64,000 nucleotides of DNA from a virus (IMGVR_UViG_3300037067_027683:1-64000); one strand, 5' to 3'; numbered from the stretch's first letter, positions 11,405 through 60,840 are shown. The notes: a model not told the origin generated them from the sequence alone. Made by a program: numbers and translations.

Positions 11405-13777
11405 CTAACTCAGTACCACTGTGTAGTTACCACAGAACTGTAGACCGTAATTCTGGTATGCTGCTATTACGATTGACCCAACTGGGTGTCCTCCTACTCC
11501 TGTACATGTTATGGCGCCTGATCCAGTGGCTGTAGCGTATCCATTATATAAACTTATGCTTATAGTCCATACTCCACCTGAGCATGTTAATGTATATCCG
11601 CCGCCACCATAATCAGTCCATGTGCAACCAGAACTATGCATAAATGCAGCCCCAGATCTCGCAAAGAACATTGGGGCATTAGTGCCACAAGGACCATATG
11701 CACTAACTGCAACGGTGATTATGCTATTACCTGTACATTGCGCGGCACAATCTGGGCAAGCAGGAGGTGGAGTACTGGAACTGGAGCTAGAGCTTGAACT
11801 AGAACTTGAACCATTTGAACTTGAACCATTTGAACTTGAACTAGAACTACATGGAATCCATTCAAATTCCCAAATAGATCCACAACAGGTATTGCCGTAT
11901 GGATCTCCTTTGAATGTACCACTAACCACAAATTGTGTATGTGCTGGAACAGTCTGACGATTATTGGCGCCATCATCAAATTCCAAGCCTGTGCCATCGC
12001 AAGCAGGATTGTAGCATCCAAAACCTTCGTCATTAGTCTCTGGGCGTAGTTTGCTAGTGTAATTGACACACACGTCGTAATCAGAATAATTCTTGATAGT
12101 CAATACGCCACTGATTGAATTAAACTCTTCATTAAAGCACACACACGTCTCTTTAGATTCTCCAATTAATCTATTATCATTTGTTATCTCAATTTCCCAG
12201 AGTAATGGACTTGTAATAGTTGTTTCATCGCAACCACATGGTCCAGCAGGACTGCTGGACGATGAATGTTGAGAAGATTGCGAACCTGCCGAACCATTTG
12301 AAGATTGTGACGACGATGACGATGAGGAAGATCCCCCTGATGATGATCCAGAAGATGAACTACTTGAAGACGAACTACCTGAATTGGAACCAGACGATGA
12401 AGATGATGCGGAAGAAGACCCACTATTACTTGAGTCAGCGAATGCAGGTTGCGGTGGGACACGCACACGTGGCAAACCTTCTACCGCACAAGCATCGCCC
12501 AAATTCCCACACATGAAGAAATTATCTCGGCAACACATTTCTGGGGGAGATGGGTCAGTGATTATGGTGAATGGGAAAGGACCAGTAATACAATCTGAAT
12601 TCTGCACATTGATTTGTGGTAGATTATTAAACCATTGGAATTTAGATAATTCGTAACGCCTCCGGTCATCACACTTCTTCATCGGAGTCCAGGCTGGTAA
12701 TTTTAATTCTGGGTATTTAACTTCGTCATTAAAAGTATAAAAACCAATATTTTTACAGTTTTTAGTTGTTTGTTCAACTGCCAATGTGTATTGACTGGAT
12801 GGGAAAGTTCCTTCACCAATTGCTAAGCTTGCAGTACAAATTTCATTACTAACTTGAGACTGTATGAATAATATGTTCTCTTTCGAGTTAGTCCTAAGAG
12901 AAGAAACATATTTTTCAAAACGAACCAATGAGTCATCTGGTATTTCGACATTTAATTCAAAAAGTGGGTCTCCGTCAGCCCCAGTTTTCCCTTGTGGGCC
13001 TCGTTGCCTAACTTTATAACGCCAAACATTTGTTTCTAGAGTAAAAACACCTTTTTTCAAAACAATTATGCCAGATACCATATTAGTTGCTGAATCATAA
13101 TGAATATGTGTGTTCTTTTCATCTACTTCATATTCGTCTGTGTCAATAAATTCCAAATAATCAGTGCCAGCTACTGAAATTAATATTTCTATTATCTGTG
13201 TGTCTTGATTAAAAATCCGTAAAGACAATGGCTCAGCTAATGGTGTTGATACTCTGTTATTGAATTCGAATGTCGTAGTCGTCAGTTTAGTTGGTTGATA
13301 GAATTTTTCTTTGGCGGCAGGTATCCCATTTCTACCTTTATCCCCTACCTCACCACGTGGCCCAATCGTACCAATACATGGTGTTCTAGTTAACAATGAT
13401 GAAATATGTGCTCTATTGACTTCTAATCTAATAAGCTTTTGTCCATTCTCTAACGTTTCTGGTTTAAAACGAATAGTGCCATCGTTTGAATTAAGATAAT
13501 AGAAATACGGATATATGCCAGACCCAACATAAATCTTATTTGGACCGAAATCTACACCCAAATCAATTGTGGTCTGTAGTTCTTTGAGTTTGGCGTAAAC
13601 ACTAGGTGGTATTAATCCGTCATTTATTTCGTTAACTAGTGGTGGATTTGGTATTATGCCAATTTGAATCCAAGAATTTTCTTCAGAGTTATATCGGTAG
13701 ATATTGCCATATTCATCTGCAACTTCTTCGCCGTCAGTTGGGTTAGATGGTAATTTTGGGGTAATATCGATGCTCAT
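11405..13777 (-). CDS. Putative virion fibre/surface protein with collagen-like triplets, poly-Ser linkers and Cys-rich modules
   Basis: N-terminal LPSNPTDG..GNIYRY..W (fibre-like), GPRGEVGDKGRNG and GPQGKTGADG triplets, two Ser-rich tracts, Cys-rich C-terminal domains. Confidence 0.65.
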   Translation of the reverse strand: MSIDITPKLPSNPTDGEEVADEYGNIYRYNSEENSWIQIGIIPNPPLVNEINDGLIPPSVYAKLKELQTTIDLGVDFGPNKIYVGSGIYPYFYYLNSNDGTIRFKPETLENGQKLIRLEVNRAHISSLLTRTPCIGTIGPRGEVGDKGRNGIPAAKEKFYQPTKLTTTTFEFNNRVSTPLAEPLSLRIFNQDTQIIEILISVAGTDYLEFIDTDEYEVDEKNTHIHYDSATNMVSGIIVLKKGVFTLETNVWRYKVRQRGPQGKTGADGDPLFELNVEIPDDSLVRFEKYVSSLRTNSKENILFIQSQVSNEICTASLAIGEGTFPSSQYTLAVEQTTKNCKNIGFYTFNDEVKYPELKLPAWTPMKKCDDRRRYELSKFQWFNNLPQINVQNSDCITGPFPFTIITDPSPPEMCCRDNFFMCGNLGDACAVEGLPRVRVPPQPAFADSSNSGSSSASSSSSGSNSGSSSSSSSSSGSSSGGSSSSSSSSQSSNGSAGSQSSQHSSSSSPAGPCGCDETTITSPLLWEIEITNDNRLIGESKETCVCFNEEFNSISGVLTIKNYSDYDVCVNYTSKLRPETNDEGFGCYNPACDGTGLEFDDGANNRQTVPAHTQFVVSGTFKGDPYGNTCCGSIWEFEWIPCSSSSSSNGSSSNGSSSSSSSSSSSSTPPPACPDCAAQCTGNSIITVAVSAYGPCGTNAPMFFARSGAAFMHSSGCTWTDYGGGGYTLTCSGGVWTISISLYNGYATATGSGAITCTGVGGHPVGSIVIAAYQNYGLQFCGNYTVVLS
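11802..11841. repeat. 15-bp tandem repeat encoding the SSSNG linker
   Basis: gaacttgaaccattt occurs twice plus a partial third copy. Confidence 0.8.
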
Positions 13778-13833
13778 ATGTTATCTTTAATCCCAAATTA
13801 TTTATTTTAGATTTCAATATAGAGAGTCTATTT

Positions 13834-14260
13834 AATCCGCATCAAATCCAAGTGATTGACCAGAGAGTAAAATAGATGACTCTGGAATTACTGGATTTTT
13901 ATTGTTTGAACATAAAGGATAGTTACAAGGAGGGGATGACCCCAACTCATTTTAGAGTTATTACTATCCAAGTTCAAACAAGCGGATTTCAGGAGACCAA
14001 ACAAAAACGAATCTTGTTCGTTTTGTCCGACCCAGTAGAGGCCCATCCGCTCCAAGAAACCCTTGAGTCTTGGAGAAGACAACAAGATCGCTCCTGTTGT
14101 CCATCCCAGCTGTGCTGGTTGATGCTTGTGCCCTGGTTCTAGACTCTGTAGATTCACCAGGTGGCCTCTGTCCTACTGGGATTTTACGACATCGTATGAT
14201 GAAGGTTGGTATTATAGGCCGAGTTAGTTATAGTCCAACCTACCAGAACGAATGGGCTTA
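13834..14260. ncRNA. Candidate structured non-coding RNA or structured DNA element in a divergent intergenic region
   Basis: More than 10 nested complementary stems (listed under findings), including a minus-strand 10-bp stem with a GCGA (GNRA) tetraloop. No convincing ORF. Confidence 0.6.
14211..14238 (-). promoter_or_regulatory. Possible sigma70-like promoter pointing into the structured element
   Basis: The minus strand reads TTGGAC-16 nt-TATAAT. Confidence 0.35.
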
Positions 14261-14383
14261 TCACAAACTTCTTACAACCAACATGAGTTTGTGATCACCT
14301 ATTTAATGACTACCACGACCACCGTGGCGTTGATTATATACGTTAAAAACAACTCGATATTTAAATATCTTAAGAGGACGACC

Positions 14384-14935
14384 ATGGACAAAATCAAAAA
14401 ACCAGAATTTGTGCAAATACTCAGATCTAAAAAACCAACTAAAGATGAACGTAAAAAGCTAATTAAGAATTTTAAGAGAAATGGTGTAGAATATGAGGCA
14501 GATGTTAAAGACCAATACAAGAGCATTAAAAAGAGAATTGCTTATTTTTCAAAAGAACATAAGATGATTGGAGAATGGATATATGTTGGTTATAATTGGT
14601 GGTGTAGAAAAATAACTGACTATGAATTTGCTAAAATATATGCTCAGAACAATACGACTTTGGAAGAGGAACCATGGGATGATAAATTTCACAAATTTGA
14701 AAATCCTCCAACCATAGTGTTAAGAGATGTTTCTGGTAATAAGGAAAAGGGATTCCTAGTAGGGTATAATGAGTTTGAATTATTAATTGAATGGATAGAC
14801 CCAATCACTAAAGAGAGAAAACATGCGATTCCGATTAGGGATGTCGAAAATATTTCTTTTGAATGGTTGGAACATTATAAGAAGTATCGGAAAATAATCG
14901 CAAATATATTAAAATCACGTAAGAAGGGGTCTTGA
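14384..14935 (+). CDS. Basic protein with C-terminal Sm/Hfq-like domain
   Basis: IVLRDVSGNKEKGFLVGYNEFELLI aligns without gaps to Hfq Sm1 ([25 protein letters not shown]) and is followed by KHAIP. The start at 14384 has a GAGG RBS. Confidence 0.5.
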   Translation: MDKIKKPEFVQILRSKKPTKDERKKLIKNFKRNGVEYEADVKDQYKSIKKRIAYFSKEHKMIGEWIYVGYNWWCRKITDYEFAKIYAQNNTTLEEEPWDDKFHKFENPPTIVLRDVSGNKEKGFLVGYNEFELLIEWIDPITKERKHAIPIRDVENISFEWLEHYKKYRKIIANILKSRKKGS

Positions 14936-14936
14936 G

Positions 14937-15179
14937 ATGTTTGGTTGGTTTAAGAGGTTATTTAAAGATAAATCAGAGATAGTGATCACAATTAATGTAC
15001 CCCCGATTCAGGTGTTTGTACATGAAGATCAGAACGATAGACCCGTTACACATAATAAACAAGAAAGACATACCACCGTTGATCCAACCGGTGTATGTAA
15101 TGAAGAAAATTTCGACCAACTTTCAGATAAATTCAAGAAAACCAAAACCTCAGAAACTCAATTTGGAATTGGTACATAA
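14937..15179 (+). CDS. Small protein with N-terminal amphipathic helix
   Basis: MFGWFKRLFK N-terminus; lies between the Sm-like and actin-like genes. Confidence 0.6.
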   Translation: MFGWFKRLFKDKSEIVITINVPPIQVFVHEDQNDRPVTHNKQERHTTVDPTGVCNEENFDQLSDKFKKTKTSETQFGIGT

Positions 15180-15213
15180 CACTGGAACATTCCTGAGAAG
15201 GAGTAACATACCC

Positions 15214-16260
15214 ATGAGATTGATCGGATTAGATCTTGGGACTAAGCATATTGTATTGTCATGGAGAGATCCTCAAAATGCGGTCAAGACTAGTTATGAG
15301 ATCAATGGATATGTGATTTTTCCTAGAGCAGATTCTTTTACTGAATCATTGTTGAAGCAGAATGGTGTTCCATTTGTTACAAGGGAGGTTGGTAATAGGA
15401 AAGAGTTAATAGCAATTGGTCAGAAAGCTGAGAAGTTGGCTTACTCTTTTAATCAGACTTTACGTAGACCCATGGCTGAGGGTGGTGTTTCAAAATTTGA
15501 TGATGATGCTCAGGAAATTATGGCTATTATTATTAAATCTATGATTGGAAAGTTAGCAGAGGATGCTTTAATTTATTATTGTACCACTGCTGCTCCTATT
15601 AATTCCGATAATTTGAATGTCGAATTTCATAAGAGGATTGTTAAATTAATAATTGAGAGTTATGCTAATGAGAAAACTAAGGTTCGTGCATTCCATATTA
15701 ATGAGGCTAGATGTTTGGTTTTAGAGGAGAAAGGTGAGGCTATTGGTATTAGTTGGGGTGCTGGAACTATTACTGTACATGCTGGTGTTTTTGGTATGCC
15801 GATTTTTGAATTTTCGATTGTGGGTGCTGGTGATTGGGTTGATGTTGAAGCTGCGAAGCGTTTTGGTTATGACCCATCTCACCCTGATCATAGTACTATC
15901 GAAACTCCTACTTCTATTTGTCGTAGGAAAGAGACTATAAGTTTATCCAAAATACCTGACGATAAGGTAGGACAGGCAATTTATTTGATGTATGAAATTC
16001 TTATTGAGAAAGTTGTTGATCAATTGGTGATCGGATTTAGGGAAAATCGTGATAAATTCAGATTTGATAAACCAATACCTGTTATTAATGCTGGTGGTAC
16101 TTGTATGCCGGATGGATTTATGGATTTGTTTAAAAAGAAGATGAATGAAGTTAAAGATGATATGTCAGTGCCAATTGGTGATATTACTAAGTTAGACAAT
16201 ACTCTGTTTGCTGTGTCTCATGGTTGTCTGAAGGCTGCTGAATTACATAAAGATGAATAA
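15214..16260 (+). CDS. Actin-fold ATPase (MreB/ParM/MamK/volactin superfamily)
   Basis: Phosphate-1 IGLDLGT, RRPMAEG, connect-1 INEAR, phosphate-2 GISWGAGT, GAGDWVD, adenosine NAGGT. The start at 15214 has an AGGAG RBS. Confidence 0.85.
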   Translation: MRLIGLDLGTKHIVLSWRDPQNAVKTSYEINGYVIFPRADSFTESLLKQNGVPFVTREVGNRKELIAIGQKAEKLAYSFNQTLRRPMAEGGVSKFDDDAQEIMAIIIKSMIGKLAEDALIYYCTTAAPINSDNLNVEFHKRIVKLIIESYANEKTKVRAFHINEARCLVLEEKGEAIGISWGAGTITVHAGVFGMPIFEFSIVGAGDWVDVEAAKRFGYDPSHPDHSTIETPTSICRRKETISLSKIPDDKVGQAIYLMYEILIEKVVDQLVIGFRENRDKFRFDKPIPVINAGGTCMPDGFMDLFKKKMNEVKDDMSVPIGDITKLDNTLFAVSHGCLKAAELHKDE

Positions 16261-16641: not shown

Positions 16642-18051
16642 GTGGAAGAGTCTCAACTGATACAACCAATTTCGGCCCAGGAGGCTGAAAATCTTTTTCC
16701 TGGTCCAAGCGATTTCGTACATTTACATAATCATACATTATTTAGTATTCTTGATGGTGTTGCTTCTCCAGAGCAATATTTCAAAGATGCTGCTGCACGT
16801 AAATCACCAGCTTTTGCTATTACGGAACATGGTGTTCTTAATAGTATTCCAGATGGTTATTTAGCATCTAAGGAGTTTGGTGTTAAATTTATTGCTGGTG
16901 TCGAGTTTTATTATTGTGATTATGATGATTTACGTAAAGATTTACAAAATAAGGGTATAACGCCTGCTATGTTGAAGGAGCAAAATCAGATCCATATTTC
17001 TTCAAGGGTTTATAGGAATCGCCATTTGACCATATTGTCTAAGGATATGGGTGGTTATGAGAATCTTCTTTCTTTAAACAAATATGCTTTTGAGAACAAT
17101 TTCTATTATAAACCTAGGACTTCTATTGAGCAATTGGCTAAATTTAAGGATGGTTTAATTGTTTTATCTGGATGCTTGAATGGTCCGGTTAGTCATGAAT
17201 TGCGTGCTGATAATTTGACAACTAAAGATGGATGGAGAGGTGCTGTTGAATATGTTCGTGACTTCAAGAATTTATTTGGGGATAATTTTTATGTGGAACT
17301 ACAAATGCCTGGGGTCGCTAATGATAAAGAAGTGTTCACTAAGTTGGTGACTTTGGCTGATCATTTTAAGGTTAAGACTGTTATTACAAATGATTGTCAT
17401 TATACTGATCGTAAAGATTTCTTAATTCAAAAAGTCATGATGGCTATTGATCAGAAGACCACTATTGATGATCCTGAATTATTTCATGTTAATTCGGATG
17501 ATCAATATATGAAGACTAGACATGAATTGCGTGCTACTTTTATTAGACGTGGTTATATATCTGATGTTCCATTGAGTGTTTTTGAACAATCTTGTAATAA
17601 TACTCTTGAAGTTGCTGATAAGTGCAAAGCTTTTAAACCTAATCTAGAACCGAAATTACCAAAGATTGATGACGCTGAAAATAAGCTATGTGCTTTAGCT
17701 CTTAACGGTTTGAAAAATAGGGGTCTGGATAAAGATTCTAAAAGATATTTTATTGATGGGCGTGAGGTTACATATTATGATCAGATGATCATTGAGTTAG
17801 ACAGGATTATTGAAAAAGGTTTTGCTTCATATTTTTTAATAACTCTTGATTTGGTAAGCAGGGCTAAACGTGAGGGTTGGATGATGGGTCCTGCTCGTGG
17901 TTCTGCTGGTGGGTCTTTAATTTGTTTTCTGATTGGTATTCAGGAACTTGATCCTATTAAATGGGGGTTGTCTTTTAATCGCTTCTTATCTCCTGCGCGA
18001 GGTGGTTTTATGCTTAATATTGGGATGCCTAAGAAGGAGAAGCCTAAATGA
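16642..18051 (+). CDS. dnaE: DNA polymerase III alpha subunit, N-terminal part (PHP domain plus start of palm)
   Basis: FVHLHNHTLFSILDG, ITEHG, GFASYFLI, GPARGSAGGSL, DPIKWGLSFNRFL. It ends before the catalytic PDxDxD. Confidence 0.92.
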   Translation: MEESQLIQPISAQEAENLFPGPSDFVHLHNHTLFSILDGVASPEQYFKDAAARKSPAFAITEHGVLNSIPDGYLASKEFGVKFIAGVEFYYCDYDDLRKDLQNKGITPAMLKEQNQIHISSRVYRNRHLTILSKDMGGYENLLSLNKYAFENNFYYKPRTSIEQLAKFKDGLIVLSGCLNGPVSHELRADNLTTKDGWRGAVEYVRDFKNLFGDNFYVELQMPGVANDKEVFTKLVTLADHFKVKTVITNDCHYTDRKDFLIQKVMMAIDQKTTIDDPELFHVNSDDQYMKTRHELRATFIRRGYISDVPLSVFEQSCNNTLEVADKCKAFKPNLEPKLPKIDDAENKLCALALNGLKNRGLDKDSKRYFIDGREVTYYDQMIIELDRIIEKGFASYFLITLDLVSRAKREGWMMGPARGSAGGSLICFLIGIQELDPIKWGLSFNRFLSPARGGFMLNIGMPKKEKPK

Positions 18052-20700: not shown

Positions 20701-23178
20701 ATGGAGTGGTTAGAATTAAAAGAATATGCTGTGAATCTTCTAAAAGAACGCAATCTCATTGATGAATATGAGAAGCGTCTAGATAAAGAATTATATGAAA
20801 TAGAGAAACAGGGTGCTAACGGACTATGGGTCGATTATTTTAATAATAAGGAAACATGGTTGGAGAATCCGAATGGTTTAGTCATACCATGGTTGTTGGG
20901 CATGACCCAAATAGACCCTGTTGCTTCTAATATTCCCCATAAAGAAACGTATCAAACAGATTTTCCCGACATCGATTTGGATTTCTTGCCCCTGGCTCGT
21001 GAAACTATTAAGAACTATGCTATAGAGAAATATAAATATGTTTGTAGTGTCGGTAATTGGGTGACTTTTAAACCGAAGTCTGCTCTCCAGGACGTGGCTC
21101 GTGCGCTCGGTATTGACGCTAGGACCATCCTTGATGTGACCTCAAATTTACCAGATGAGTTTGATGATCTTGATCTTGAGGACCATGAATTAATTTGGAA
21201 GGATCTAAATAATCCAGATGAGAAGAAGAGGGAAGAGGCTGGTCGTGAAATAGCAAGATATAAGACATTTTACGACTTCAAGGATTCAAATCCAGAAACT
21301 GTTGATATTGCTTATCGTCTTGTCGGTAAACTTCGTACACAGAGCATGCATGCTGGTGGTGTTATTATTGCTGATAGACCTATTGAGAATTTAGTACCTT
21401 TGTCATTATTGAAAAAGGGTTGGGCTAGTCAATGGACAGAAGGCAAACGAACGCAGTTGTCTAAATTTGGGTTAGTTAAGTTTGATATATTGGGAGTTAA
21501 GACTATCTATTACATCTGGCAGGCTGGTAATCTTATTAAAAAGAATTTTGGAATTACTATTGATTGGTCTAGCATGGACCCTTTGGCAATCCCAATGCGC
21601 TTGGGTTATGAAATTTTGAAAGATGGCACTAAGAATGATATAATATTTGATGATGCAACGCTTAAAATGACTAATGAACTTAGGACTGATTCTGCTTTTC
21701 AAATTGAAAGTCAGATTCAAAAAGGCATCATTCGTGATGGTAAGATTAGGTCATTTTGGGATTTGGTTGTTTATAATGCACTCGGTCGTCCAGGTCCAAT
21801 GGATTGTATTCCTGAATACATCAAGCAACGTGATGATCCTTCTGAGGGGTGGAAACAGAATGAAGATTCTCGTGTCATAAAGATTCTGCCAGACACTTAT
21901 GGTGTTATCTGTTATCAAGAGCAATTGCAAGCTATGTGGCAATCGTTGGCTGGTTTTACTGTTCCTGAAGCTGAAGATGCTAGAAAGATTATTTCTAAAA
22001 AGTGGGTTGATAAGTTACCCAAAGTAGAAGCAAAATGGAAAGCAGGTGCGTCTAAAACGATTGGTGAGGACGCCACTAATGAATGGTGGAATAAGATGGT
22101 GTCATTTGGTCGTTACGCTTTTAATAAAAGTCATGCTGTAGCTTATTCTGTGGTTACTTTTAGATGTTTGTGGTTAAAGTCACATTATCCACAACAGTGG
22201 TGGGCGGCTGTTATGTCTGAATGTCACCCAGATAAGTTGCCTGGATATATGACTGCTGCCAAGGTTGATGGTGTGCAATTTGGTGCTTTAGATGTTGACA
22301 ATCTTACACATGATTTTGACGTTGACCTTAATAATAAAGTAGTTCCTGGTATAGCTGCGATTAAGGGGATTGGAGAGAAGGCGTCTAGGAGATTTACAGA
22401 TATAAAGGGTCCATTTAAATCAATTGAGGATGTTGTCGAAAAATGTGGTAAACACAAAAAAGTTTTTGAACGTTTAATTAAACTAAATGCCTTTAGTAAG
22501 TTCTATTCAAACAGGAGAGGATTGTGGATATGGTACCAATGGGCGTACACAAATAACCCCGAAATTAAAAAGTTTGTTCGTGACGTATTCAAGTGGTCTG
22601 AAGAAGCTATTATGATGGAACGAGATAGACAGCGACAGAATTTTCTTCGTGAACATCCAAAACGTAAGGTCCCAAAGAAGATTGAATCTTGGTTACCGAA
22701 AATCAATCCGCCAAGAGATGAATTCTTAAAAATAATACCAGATTATACTCCATTTGAATCATTACAAATAGAAAAAGAGTTACTTGGTTATTATTGGAGT
22801 TCGCCTATGGATATTTATATGCACGATTCGACTAAAACCATAACAAAGGCCAAAAATGATGGTAAGAATGGCATAATTGATGTTGTGATCCAGAAAGTTA
22901 CTAGTAGACGTTCGAAGTTAGGCAATGAGTATTATGTTCTCAGGGTGTCGGATGGTGTTCAAACCGCCGACGTTATGATATGGTTGAATATTTATAACTC
23001 AGTTGATAATAGAATATTCCAGGAAGCTGTTGGCGTCAGGCTTTTTGTTGAGTATAATGTTGAGCACAACAGTTTTAAGATAATGAACGGGACAACTCCG
23101 ATACCACTACATAGACGTGGAGCGTCTAATGCCGAAGAAGTAGCCCAAATTGAAATGGAGGATTACCCATTATGGTAG
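20701..23178 (+). CDS. dnaE: DNA polymerase III alpha subunit, catalytic C-terminal part
   Basis: FPDIDLDF, HAGGVII, GLVKFDILG, RPGPM, YQEQ, YAFNKSHAVAYS, IKGIG (HhH), EKELLGYY, OB fold. Confidence 0.92.
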   Translation: MEWLELKEYAVNLLKERNLIDEYEKRLDKELYEIEKQGANGLWVDYFNNKETWLENPNGLVIPWLLGMTQIDPVASNIPHKETYQTDFPDIDLDFLPLARETIKNYAIEKYKYVCSVGNWVTFKPKSALQDVARALGIDARTILDVTSNLPDEFDDLDLEDHELIWKDLNNPDEKKREEAGREIARYKTFYDFKDSNPETVDIAYRLVGKLRTQSMHAGGVIIADRPIENLVPLSLLKKGWASQWTEGKRTQLSKFGLVKFDILGVKTIYYIWQAGNLIKKNFGITIDWSSMDPLAIPMRLGYEILKDGTKNDIIFDDATLKMTNELRTDSAFQIESQIQKGIIRDGKIRSFWDLVVYNALGRPGPMDCIPEYIKQRDDPSEGWKQNEDSRVIKILPDTYGVICYQEQLQAMWQSLAGFTVPEAEDARKIISKKWVDKLPKVEAKWKAGASKTIGEDATNEWWNKMVSFGRYAFNKSHAVAYSVVTFRCLWLKSHYPQQWWAAVMSECHPDKLPGYMTAAKVDGVQFGALDVDNLTHDFDVDLNNKVVPGIAAIKGIGEKASRRFTDIKGPFKSIEDVVEKCGKHKKVFERLIKLNAFSKFYSNRRGLWIWYQWAYTNNPEIKKFVRDVFKWSEEAIMMERDRQRQNFLREHPKRKVPKKIESWLPKINPPRDEFLKIIPDYTPFESLQIEKELLGYYWSSPMDIYMHDSTKTITKAKNDGKNGIIDVVIQKVTSRRSKLGNEYYVLRVSDGVQTADVMIWLNIYNSVDNRIFQEAVGVRLFVEYNVEHNSFKIMNGTTPIPLHRRGASNAEEVAQIEMEDYPLW

Positions 23179-25995: not shown

Positions 25996-26424
25996 TCTAA
26001 ATATTATGCCACGACTTGGCATTTGAATTGGGAATGATGCGGGGGTATTATTCTGTGATCTGGACGTAGTAAGTCTAATATTTGATAATCTTGATATTAG
26101 TTTATCGTCTGGTATTATAGCCCTCAATGCTATGTTAATAGCATAATAGATTGTATTGCGGACTGGTATGTCTTCATATGATACTTGTGTCCATTTGTAA
26201 TCATAAACGAAATTTTCTATGTGACTATCAAGATATAATACATAGGTACTCTGAAAAATTCCGAACTGTGCCATTAATTCATGTAATCTTGTATACTTTG
26301 GGTCATAACCAACCATGTTCAATTGATTGGGGCTACTTAGTTGGTCTATTCGTATTATCTCTATATAATTGGTGAGACTGGGTGGGACATATGATTCTGC
26401 TTGTCCACTAGATCCAATACTCAT
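25984..26424 (-). CDS. Hypothetical protein
   Basis: Part of a coupled three-gene minus-strand unit. Confidence 0.5.
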   Translation of the reverse strand: MSIGSSGQAESYVPPSLTNYIEIIRIDQLSSPNQLNMVGYDPKYTRLHELMAQFGIFQSTYVLYLDSHIENFVYDYKWTQVSYEDIPVRNTIYYAINIALRAIIPDDKLISRLSNIRLTTSRSQNNTPASFPIQMPSRGIIFRSSI

Positions 26425-59088: not shown

Positions 59089-59697
59089 ATGCCAGACAAT
59101 GAACCAGTGTATGATGATCGTGTTGCAGTATTGGTTGATGTGCAGAATATGTTTTATTCTGCAAAATACCTTAAACAGAGTAAAGTAGATTATGGTAAAC
59201 TACTTACTGGCATTTTAGATGGCCGTAGTCTCGTTCGGGCTATTGCTTACATTGTGCAGAAGCCTGATGTCGATCAGAGTGGGTTCCATGATGCTTTGTC
59301 AAGGATCGGCTTTGATCTTCGTGTTAAAGAGATGAAGATTCACCCACAGGTGGGCGATAAGAAGTCAGTTGCTAAAGGATCTCATGATATCACAATTACT
59401 TGTGATGCATTGATGCTTGCACCAAAAGTTGACACGATTGTATTGGTTACAGGGGATGGTGATTTTGCGATTTTGGCTGATCGGTTGAAGGCACTTGGTT
59501 GTCGTGTTGAAGTCGTGAGTTTTGATGGTTCTACTGCTGGTGATTTGATTCATGCTGCTGATGAGTTTATTCCTATTAATGATGAATGGATCTTTAAAGA
59601 GAAGAAGTTCGAGCAACAAGCGACTGCAACAGCGGCAGTAGCACCTTCTTATGAAGGTCTTCCTGCTGACGATGATGAATCAATTGGCAATAAGTAG
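59089..59697 (+). CDS. NYN-domain (LabA/DUF88, PIN-like) protein
   Basis: VLVDVQNMFY, K.K, D..ITCD, LVTGDGDF, G.RVEV, ADEF. Confidence 0.9.
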   Translation: MPDNEPVYDDRVAVLVDVQNMFYSAKYLKQSKVDYGKLLTGILDGRSLVRAIAYIVQKPDVDQSGFHDALSRIGFDLRVKEMKIHPQVGDKKSVAKGSHDITITCDALMLAPKVDTIVLVTGDGDFAILADRLKALGCRVEVVSFDGSTAGDLIHAADEFIPINDEWIFKEKKFEQQATATAAVAPSYEGLPADDDESIGNK

Positions 59698-59705
59698 TAG
59701 ATAGT

Positions 59706-59738
59706 AGCAAGGCCCCACTATATTGGTGGGGCCTTGCT
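59706..59738 (+). terminator. GC-rich hairpin after the NYN gene
   Basis: agcaaggccccac...gtggggccttgct (13-bp perfect stem). Confidence 0.7.
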
Positions 59739-59828
59739 GTATTTGGAATTATTTCATCTGATGATGTACGAGCAAAAATAATACTGAACAGGATGGCGGT
59801 TGCCATCACACTTGTAGGAGGATGGAAA

Positions 59829-60221
59829 ATGGCGAATTCCCAACCGGCTAATGCGACAATCTCGATTTTCCGCAGACTGCGGGTGGTCAGAGATAATCGC
59901 AGGCACACGAGCGTCAAGCATCTGACGACTCCATTTGACACCAATTACGTACCGGTGCCAGGTGAAGAAGTCCAGGTTCTTGAGAATCGTGATGCATCGT
60001 TCCGCACTGATGCATTCCGGTACGGTCATCCGGTTACGGTGGAGCCACGAGCCAACTGCACGCTGGCGGACATTTACGCTGGTATTGCTGGACTGGACTT
60101 CCCAGTTCGCCTGCCAGGAAACTTCCGCGAGATGCAAGTTCAGCTGGTTCCTGGTCACGTTACCGACGACCTGTACGGCGAAGCGCAGGCTGTTTGTGCT
60201 GGCCACGCCTTCGTTGTTTAA
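59829..60221 (+). CDS. Hypothetical protein with GC-rich codon usage
   Basis: AGGAG RBS; many CTG/CGC/CCG/TTC codons, unlike neighbouring genes. Confidence 0.7.
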   Translation: MANSQPANATISIFRRLRVVRDNRRHTSVKHLTTPFDTNYVPVPGEEVQVLENRDASFRTDAFRYGHPVTVEPRANCTLADIYAGIAGLDFPVRLPGNFREMQVQLVPGHVTDDLYGEAQAVCAGHAFVV

Positions 60222-60237
60222 TCTGGCTGCTTAGCGG

Positions 60238-60270
60238 GATGATAGACACCATAATCTGGTGTCTATCATC
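60238..60270 (+). terminator. 14-bp perfect inverted repeat
   Basis: gatgatagacacca-taatc-tggtgtctatcatc. Confidence 0.7.
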
Positions 60271-60297
60271 TTATCTGAACCACAGCCGAGGTGACTT

Positions 60298-60840
60298 GTG
60301 GCAGAAGTTAGCATTCCAACAAGATTGTCTACGGCTCCTGGTGCTCCACCGCATTTGATTACTAAATATGCTCATGTTCCATTTACCTGTTTTCTCAGAA
60401 TAACTCCGTTGCGACCAGCCAAACGCGAAGAAACAATACGAGAAGTCGAGAAAAATATCGCTTTTGTTGAATCAGTGTTGGACAATCTTTGTGGCGCTGG
60501 CTCTGGATCAGATGGCACTTTGTCTTTTGATTATACCAAACCTGTGGCTTATACACCACAATTTGGTGATAAAACTGCTCGTTTATCGTTTAATGGACAT
60601 ATTTGTCGTAGAGATGCATTTGCTAAAACACCAGTTGGTGAGAGAATCGTTGTAAATGCTGGACAATTCTGGGTTGGTCCTGGTGCTTCCAATGCGAGTA
60701 ACAGGCAACCAGATGTTCAGTTAGATAGCGTCGTTGCAGATTTCAAAGCTATAATTGAGGCTGCTACTGGTCTAGTAGTTATTAGATTAGAAGTTGCAAG
60801 ATATATTTATGGTGCTGGTGGTACTACTTTCCCATCTTAG
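60298..60840 (+). CDS. Hypothetical protein
   Basis: GAGG RBS with GTG start. Confidence 0.6.
   Translation: MAEVSIPTRLSTAPGAPPHLITKYAHVPFTCFLRITPLRPAKREETIREVEKNIAFVESVLDNLCGAGSGSDGTLSFDYTKPVAYTPQFGDKTARLSFNGHICRRDAFAKTPVGERIVVNAGQFWVGPGASNASNRQPDVQLDSVVADFKAIIEAATGLVVIRLEVARYIYGAGGTTFPS

Follow-up and report, generated by a model that had tools for sequence, protein, structure and literature searches.

Few non-coding RNAs combine large size with an intricate fold, and historically those that do have proved to be ribozymes, ribonucleoprotein cores or unusual assemblies. GOLLD, ROOL, HEARO, OLE and raiA are the described RNAs that come closest to the locus considered here: they are several hundred nt long, contain multi-way junctions and invariant unpaired blocks, and were found by sequence comparison, free of particular neighboring genes. 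Self-assembling RNA architectures have recently been described for other large phage-associated RNAs. Jumbo phages are noted for protein novelties (the phage nucleus, tubulins and actins); to our knowledge, almost nothing is known of their own structured RNAs beyond tRNAs and tmRNAs. The element described below shares all these features of GOLLD, ROOL, HEARO, OLE and raiA and is phage-borne, as is often the case for GOLLD and ROOL. In contrast, none of their Rfam models matches it, it lies 75 kb from the tRNA array of its phage instead of adjoining it, and its family is tiny, with three deep lineages on jumbo-phage contigs only. Previously undescribed as a putative structured non-coding RNA, it is probably a free-standing gene for a large, complex-folded non-coding RNA of a jumbo-phage clade that is small as far as found, its main domain most likely being read from the minus strand.

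The window, i.e., the whole 64,000-nt stretch of viral DNA that was analyzed, makes up the initial 64 kb of a 102-kb viral record that CheckV rates at 28% completeness. This low completeness, a protein shared with a 372-kb contig and the 29 tRNA genes in the record identify the window as a jumbo-phage fragment. tRNA arrays are typical of jumbo phages; here the 29 genes form an array at G000 89512-102004, beyond the window (ARAGORN). The element lies in a 606-nt gap bounded by two divergent genes (Table 1). The left neighbor encodes a 790-aa protein with long poly-Ser tracts and Cys-rich segments, which account for the G+C-rich patches inside the gene. Relatives of this protein, taking only its N-terminal ~440 residues as query, are 451-607 aa long and 34-36% identical; the copy in L029, one of the loci that carry the element, is 46% identical across residues 8-436. 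To the right, the gene for a 183-aa protein is followed by an 80-aa ORF, an actin-like (Volactin) gene, an Hc1-like gene and a split DnaE. The Volactin-family gene is free of an intein in the window (14995-16260); in several relatives it contains one with a LAGLIDADG domain (L003:5001-7118; L013-L015:4001-6115). The DnaE-type polymerase is apparently split between 16642-18051 and 20701-23178, the first gene comprising only the PHP domain and the start of the NTPase region, and the same first piece occurs in L003 and in the Logan copy of the window's phage. In L031-L034, which carry related actin and 790-aa genes yet lack the element, the 790-aa homolog directly follows the actin-like gene on the same strand (compare window 11405-16260). 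The divergent order of these two genes in the window, with the RNA element between them, suggests an inversion.

All stems listed in the preliminary description between 13834 and 14260 were found at their positions. This stretch folds at -144.8 kcal/mol on the plus strand (z = -6.0) and at -145.0 kcal/mol on the minus strand (z = -6.6; RNAfold), energies that none of 100 dinucleotide shuffles reaches and that do not decide the strand. Among 150-nt windows of the 102-kb record, the element ranks with the strongest fold outliers other than tRNAs, and its G+C content is 0.43-0.50 vs. ~0.33 for the genome. Other non-tRNA outliers (window 59601-60300 and 26001-26150; G000 67551-67700, 68951-69150 and 90851-91050) may be further structured RNAs or merely G+C-rich coding stretches. 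The architecture consists of two closed multi-helix domains linked by a hairpin, H0, with a near-invariant loop. On the plus strand the order is an AT-rich box, the left domain, H0, the right domain, an invariant block, hairpin E, a 17-nt block, hairpin F and a second AT-rich box.

Table 1. Parts of the element and its two neighboring genes, in window coordinates; for the RNA parts the strand is the one on which they are most probably read (., not assigned).
Feature	Position	Strand	Description
790-aa Ser/Cys-rich protein	11405-13777	minus	left neighbor of the element
Conserved AT-rich box AAUAUAGAGAGUCU	13816-13829	.	just outside the left domain
Left domain	13834-13988	.	closed multi-arm fold; z about -7 on either strand
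Left-domain closing stem	13834-13840 / 13982-13988		AAUCCGC / GCGGAUU
Left-domain arm 1	13844-13898
Left-domain arm 2	13902-13981		holds a three-way junction
Hairpin H0	14004-14024	minus	links both domains; loop UCUUG plus / CAAGA minus
Right-domain core, multi-way junction	14031-14180	minus	four hairpins (A-D) inside a two-part helix
Right-domain closing strands	14031-14043 / 14163-14180		CCCAGUAG+AGGCC / GGCCU..CUACUGGG
Helix P3a	14031-14038 / 14173-14180
Helix P3b	14039-14043 / 14163-14167
Asymmetric internal loop	14168-14172
Invariant junction strand	14044-14049	minus	CAUCCG plus, CGGAUG minus; identical in 6/6 aligned sequences
Hairpin A	14050-14075	minus	different complementary stem in each lineage
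Hairpin B, GNRA-capped arm	14078-14101	minus	minus-strand reading GACAACAGGA-GCGA-UCUUGUUGUC
Hairpin C	14102-14124	minus	variable sequence; hairpin at this position in every lineage
Conserved junction strand	14125-14131	minus	CUUGUGC plus, GCACAAG minus
Hairpin D	14132-14161	minus	large, partly conserved 18-nt loop (..AGAUU..)
Invariant block	14178-14189	minus	GGAUUUUACG plus, CGUAAAAUCC minus; identical in 6/6 sequences
Hairpin E	14190-14201	minus	CAUC-GUAU-GAUG
Conserved 17-nt block (contains GUUAGUUAnnGUCCAAC)	14223-14239	minus	GUUAGUUAUAGUCCAAC plus, GUUGGACUAUAACUAAC minus
Hairpin F, AUCACAAACU..AGUUUGUGAU	14260-14295	.	beyond the core
Conserved AT-rich box	14334-14341	.	TTATATAC plus, GTATATAA minus; right-hand end of conservation
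Basic 183-aa protein	14384-14935	plus	right neighbor; RBS AAGAGGA

Diverged copies of the element, 58-61% identical to the window, were found in metagenomes, in four additional phage lineages or variants (L003, L029, L038/L039 and L044); L002 is an identical copy in another assembly and uninformative for comparison. The 50-kb scaffold with L003 was reached via the actin-like neighbor (63% identical, with an intein), and its element lies in a 750-nt gap upstream of a 30%-identical homolog of the 183-aa protein. L029 (355-kb metagenome contig) was reached by a two-block DNA pattern common to the window and L003, and L038/L039 (205-kb contig) and L044 by a profile of the 183-aa protein. R1, a covariance model trained on the window, L003 and L029, gives 176-228 bits for six sequences (the window, L003, L029, L038, L039 and L044), the three not used for training reaching 177-198 bits, and matches nothing else in the ~210 kb of DNA retrieved or in the record of the phage itself. 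L003, L038 and L044 form one subclade (88-94% identity), and there are only three deep lineages among the homologs; 86 of 264 alignment columns are invariant.

Pattern scans of viral contigs added no member to the family, which is therefore rare in the collections reached. Nineteen loci in viral contigs (L006-L011, L016-L028) match CCTACTRGGATTTTACG and TTAGTTAWRGTCCAACCT by chance, in unrelated coding or tRNA sequence. L037, in a Bryobacterales MAG, was the sole pattern match in genome contigs and is also due to chance, with no model hit. Further combined patterns had no match in viral contigs, a neighbor-based search of viral contigs (790-aa, actin-like and 183-aa proteins) found no relatives, and blastn of the phage collection gave no match. 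The gap beside the 790-aa homolog in L030 is repetitive coding-like sequence, not the element. In a more distant phage (L015; actin 46% identical, with an intein), the corresponding position ahead of the actin module is taken by a different G+C-rich intergenic sequence (L015:1745-2125, also in L013 and L014), which folds at z = -3.8 and is matched by neither R1 nor Rfam.

The preliminary description had proposed covariation among homologs as a check, and it is found: stems are exchanged for other complementary sequences and the single-stranded blocks are invariant. For the 26 pairs of the helices in MAFFT register (H0, P3a, P3b, D and E), 96% of cells are paired and 12 pairs are changed on both sides in three sequences, 94% of cells and again 12 pairs in six sequences, in both cases with none of 500 column shuffles as high and with 23-57% of cells paired in slid-partner controls (25-57% for the three sequences); these counts lean towards the structure, which was drawn from the tested sequences and to which the six-sequence alignment was fitted. 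Four of the five pairs of H0 are changed on both sides, with the loop kept (UCCUG in L038/L039), as are 4/5 pairs of hairpin D, whose loop motif AGAUU is invariant, and two pairs of P3a (six sequences). The stems of hairpin E covary as CAUC/GAUG, CUACC/GGUAG and CAGC/GCUG. Hairpins A, B, C and F stay paired with different sequences, including double changes between L003 and L038 (two in hairpin A); hairpin C of L038 reads GAC-UUCG-GUC on the minus strand, and a hairpin of different sequence stands at the place of F in L003, L038 and L029. Helices are thus kept via compensatory changes, the general mark of a structured non-coding RNA.

Several unpaired strands are conserved in sequence. Invariant unpaired blocks flank the right domain (CGUAAAAUCC and GUUGGACnnUAACUAAC, minus strand), and within it the UUGUG of the conserved junction strand is kept in the window, L003 and L029 and is 1-2 bases off in L038/L039 and L044. 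Fourteen of the 17 positions of the 17-nt block are identical across all six sequences, and a search of both strands of the 102-kb record for a pairing target gave no other match at ≤3 mismatches. The palindrome AGGUUGG/CCAACCU (14203-14241), read as a stem in the preliminary description, is present in the window; in relatives the stem is not kept and only its 3′ half is conserved, as sequence (block GUUAGUUAnnGUCCAAC). A tRNA-like 3′ end (AGGUUGG/CCAACCU + ACCA in the window) is likewise not kept in relatives, and neither CsrA-type GGA loops nor a Y-RNA-like GUCCGA extend beyond one or two sequences; these candidates were set aside.

In the left domain it is the closing stem (AUCCGC/GCGGRU) and the closed multi-arm architecture that are kept in L003, L038 and L029; the arms cannot be aligned as sequence between the window and these copies, and their length differs too. 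L003 has an extra ~155-nt domain directly left of the element (L003:3178-3333), closed by a 14-bp stem, AAAUGCCCCAAAUU / AAUUUGGGGCAUUU, and absent in the window and L038. At L029:5875-6073 (minus strand of the locus) the left domain contains a ~250-nt G/U-rich low-complexity insert with GCUGUUGUUUUGU-like words.

No known family accounts for the element. Rfam release 15 has no match in the whole window at the gathering threshold, and at E<10 both strands of the region give sub-threshold noise (best 20 bits vs. a threshold of 50); L003 and L015 likewise match no family and give noise only. ARAGORN finds no tRNA or tmRNA in the window. That the stretch is instead a small protein gene (ORF 13876-14142 on the plus strand or ORF 13888-14157 on the minus strand) is extremely improbable: both frames are open in the window (88 and 89 codons) and there is one weak PHROG match (E = 0.004), but translated similarity to L003 or L029 is absent at the default E cutoff (best E = 0.03), the longest open frame in the L003 copy has 69 codons, no Pfam family matches, and substitutions keep base pairs, not codons. 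ORF 13888-14157, which the preliminary description had singled out as the possible coding alternative, is conserved in neither L003 nor L029, and a protein gene is contradicted by the absence of a conserved frame. The refuting conditions set out there all turn out to favor an RNA: the stretch folds far better than its shuffles, homologs covary and this ORF is not conserved. The suggestion of a novel non-coding RNA made there has held, with compensatory changes in homologs, no Rfam family and no conserved ORF, as has the strand on which its GNRA arm had pointed; the sigma-70 promoter and the U-rich end proposed with it have not.

The strand of the right domain is indicated by several features. 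The GNRA arm, hairpin B, points to the minus strand in all relatives as it does in the window: the minus-strand loops are GCGA (window), GCAA (L029) and GUGA (L003, L038 and L044), all GNRA, on stems of unrelated sequence, and their plus-strand counterparts (UCGC, UUGC and UCAC) correspond to no known motif. Among the hand-listed right-domain helices of five distinct sequences there are 241 Watson-Crick pairs and, on the plus strand, no G·U pair and eight A·C mismatches; the latter are G·U pairs on the minus strand, six of them in hairpin B. The minimum free energy of the P3-closed core is lower on the minus strand in 5/5 sequences, by 6-12 kcal/mol. Unpaired positions contain a fraction of 0.39-0.44 A on the minus strand vs. 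0.18-0.27 on the plus strand, where they are C/U-rich, and neighboring genes are co-oriented with the minus reading in 6/9 cases vs. 3/9. On these grounds (hairpin B loops, wobble pairs, energy, composition and gene context), the right domain (14031-14180 and flanks) is most probably a minus-strand RNA. G·U pairs are rare overall, which is also compatible with a constraint on both strands.

In the left domain the strand signals are mixed. A U·G pair occurs in the closing stem of L003 and L029 and a G·U pair in an arm of the window, and plus-strand A·C mismatches are found in L003 (one) and L038 (two), both of which fold better on the minus strand. The left domain of L029 folds only on the plus strand (-112 vs. 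-78 kcal/mol), in a stretch that is low-complexity and G/U-rich. The simplest model would be that the whole ~0.45-0.6 kb element forms one minus-strand transcript. Its main alternative, itself unlikely, consists of two convergent structured RNAs or a sense/antisense pair, in which the plus strand would give the left domain and H0, and the minus strand the right domain; the transcripts would meet at H0, a shared, partly bidirectional terminator. Two transcripts would fit the split of wobbles by domain, with none on the plus strand of the right domain beside its A·C mismatches and several plus-strand G·U pairs in the left domain and the outer H0 helix, the A-run before and U-run after H0 in the window, and AT and GC skews that switch sign between the domains. 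However, the A·C mismatches of L003 and L038 and the greater stability of both on the minus strand extend to the left domain, H0 lacks a U-run after it on the plus strand in the L003 clade and on both strands in L029, no H0 hairpin comes up in the terminator scan, and a plain terminator would not need a near-invariant loop.

Transcription signals were examined on both strands. The minus-strand promoter TTGGAC-16-TATAAT of the preliminary description is specific to the window: its -35 has only 3/6 matches and falls, as a -35-like word, within the conserved 17-nt block, its -10 occurs in no homolog, and the promoter consensus scan of the window does not list it. The U-rich end after H0 on the minus strand is present in the window and the L003 clade and missing in L029. 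In the window alone, the minus-strand TATAAT, the ~200-nt structured body and the hairpin with a U-run thus resemble an intrinsically terminated sigma-70 sRNA; such a reading differs in that the -10 is absent from all relatives, the U-run does not extend to L029, and the best-conserved block would be placed ahead of the transcription start so defined. Promoter and terminator consensus scans of both strands of the window and relatives give no shared site, and such a scan may miss the promoters of these phages. The two AT-rich boxes delimit conservation and may be promoter elements. The left one has the form ATAGAg..TCT in the window, L003 and L038 and a looser one in L029; its minus-strand reading contains a -10-like TATATT, for which the consensus scan gives TTGATG-18-TATATT. 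The right one is TTATATAC in the window and L029 and TTAGATAC in L003 and L038, and could be a putative promoter element for either strand. Hairpin F may be part of the transcript.

The gene context bears on whether the element serves a particular gene. Oriented as the window's plus strand, the order is 790-aa (-), element, 183-aa (+) in the window; 207-aa (+), element, 87-aa and 173-aa (+) in L003; 790-aa homolog and 200-aa (-), element, fiber-like 455-aa (-) in L029; 80-aa (-), element, SOD (-), then the 184-aa operon (+) in L038; and element, DUF6899 (-), then the 177-aa gene (+) in L044. The element thus adjoins the 790-aa gene in the window and L029 and precedes the 183-aa/actin genes at a short distance in the window, L003, L038 and L044. 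The left-flank genes are unrelated between lineages, and so are the genes downstream on the minus strand (the 790-aa gene, a 200-aa gene or an 80/91-aa gene). Because flanking genes differ between lineages, the element is not the leader of one particular gene; a cis-regulatory leader of one gene family, for which the same downstream gene would be expected in every lineage, was rejected. It is quite unlikely that the element is a plus-strand RNA, be it a gene standing by itself or the long structured leader of the 183-aa/actin-like operon. Such an RNA would agree with the position of the element, which precedes this operon and shares its orientation in the window, L003, L038 and L044, with the G·U pairs of the left domain and with the A-rich loops of the left domain in the window. 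However, a minus-strand gene (SOD or DUF6899) intervenes in L038 and L044, the operon is not near the L029 element, hairpin B would have up to three A·C mismatches and a non-standard loop, and the core would be the less stable of the two strands, by the 6-12 kcal/mol given above, in every sequence compared. Homologous across lineages, with covarying helices, variable neighbors, no known family and no conserved ORF, the element itself is the conserved unit, free-standing in the genome.

Structured RNAs beside replication genes offer a further comparison. ColE1 RNA II and the T4 origin transcripts are examples of structured primer or R-loop RNAs. Like ColE1 RNA II/RNA I and phage origin transcripts, the element is structured, non-coding, several hundred nt long and beside replication genes, and its helices could form on both strands, as with RNA II/RNA I. 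In contrast to RNA II/RNA I, it has no conserved antisense promoter pair, the wobbles of its right domain are one-sided, and it forms a closed junction instead of successive stem-loops. It is improbable that the element acts at a replication origin, as a structured primer or R-loop RNA or as an ssDNA fold recognized by replication proteins. Such a role would suit its setting within or next to the replication module (split DnaE, helicase, Hc1-like and actin-like genes) in 4/5 contexts, its nearly pure Watson-Crick helices (241/251 pairs), as expected if both strands must pair, and the cumulative GC skew, which is flat over 0-14 kb and rises steadily from the element onward. However, the skew is not specific to the element: it changes where gene orientation switches, and its global minimum falls at 5.4 kb, away from the element. 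L003, L029 and L038 lack divergent flanking genes, and in L029 the neighbors are fiber-like genes. One-sided wobbles, invariant junction strands and GNRA loops distinguish a folded RNA from a DNA site. Against both an ssDNA origin and a sense/antisense pair, a junction with invariant unpaired blocks that combines such loops and wobbles argues for a one-strand RNA, at least in the right domain.

On the plus strand, part of the right domain bears a likeness to a group I core. A closing helix, an A/U-rich joiner (AUUUUACG), a short hairpin and an ..AUAGUCC block (..AGUUAUAGUCC) follow in the order of P3′, J3/8, P8 and J8/7-P7′, with GUUCUAGACU upstream; this order resembles P3, J3/8, P8, J8/7-P7, R and S. 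Between the window and L003 a U-A pair is replaced by C-G, in agreement with a P7-like pairing. It is nevertheless highly improbable that the element is a group I intron or a group-I-like ribozyme, and this reading was rejected on topology, the third homolog, the lack of an interrupted gene (absent exons) and the strand of selection. The topology is broken by hairpin D, which covaries, and by helix P3b, both placed between the P7 candidate strand and P3′, and the P7-like pairing is disrupted in L029, where GAAU faces AGUC. A P4-P6 stack is lacking and Rfam gives no intron match; neither side has an interrupted gene or tRNA or a conserved frame, and the flanks differ between lineages. Moreover, wobbles, GNRA loops and energy favor selection of the helices on the opposite strand.

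For a free-standing minus-strand RNA, a role in trans may be envisaged, as a folded scaffold or as the RNA of a ribonucleoprotein. The GNRA tetraloop of hairpin B would probably dock elsewhere in the fold, and the invariant single-stranded blocks could be binding surfaces. The RNA may cooperate with proteins of the adjacent replication and actin-like module, e.g., the 183-aa protein. The link between the two consists of adjacency in 4/5 contexts and a medium-confidence protein model with no significant fold match. This AlphaFold model (two-sequence input, pLDDT 63) has a C-terminal five-stranded small β-barrel; no Pfam family matches the protein, and Foldseek gives weak Sm, KOW and Tudor-type rows only, none at E≤0.001. 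An Sm/Hfq identity was dropped in view of this pLDDT, the weak Foldseek rows and the lack of a Pfam match. Judging from the model, an RNA-binding role for the 183-aa protein is possible.

The small family could still be a lineage-specific regulatory or origin element. That it represents a new class of large, tertiary-folded phage RNA with its own function, be it a ribozyme, a self-assembling architecture or a ribonucleoprotein subunit tied to replication or segregation, is rather doubtful. For the biology of jumbo phages, the element would provide a defined putative RNA for which a candidate neighboring protein, a probable strand and five natural variants are at hand, along with a model of the secondary structure.
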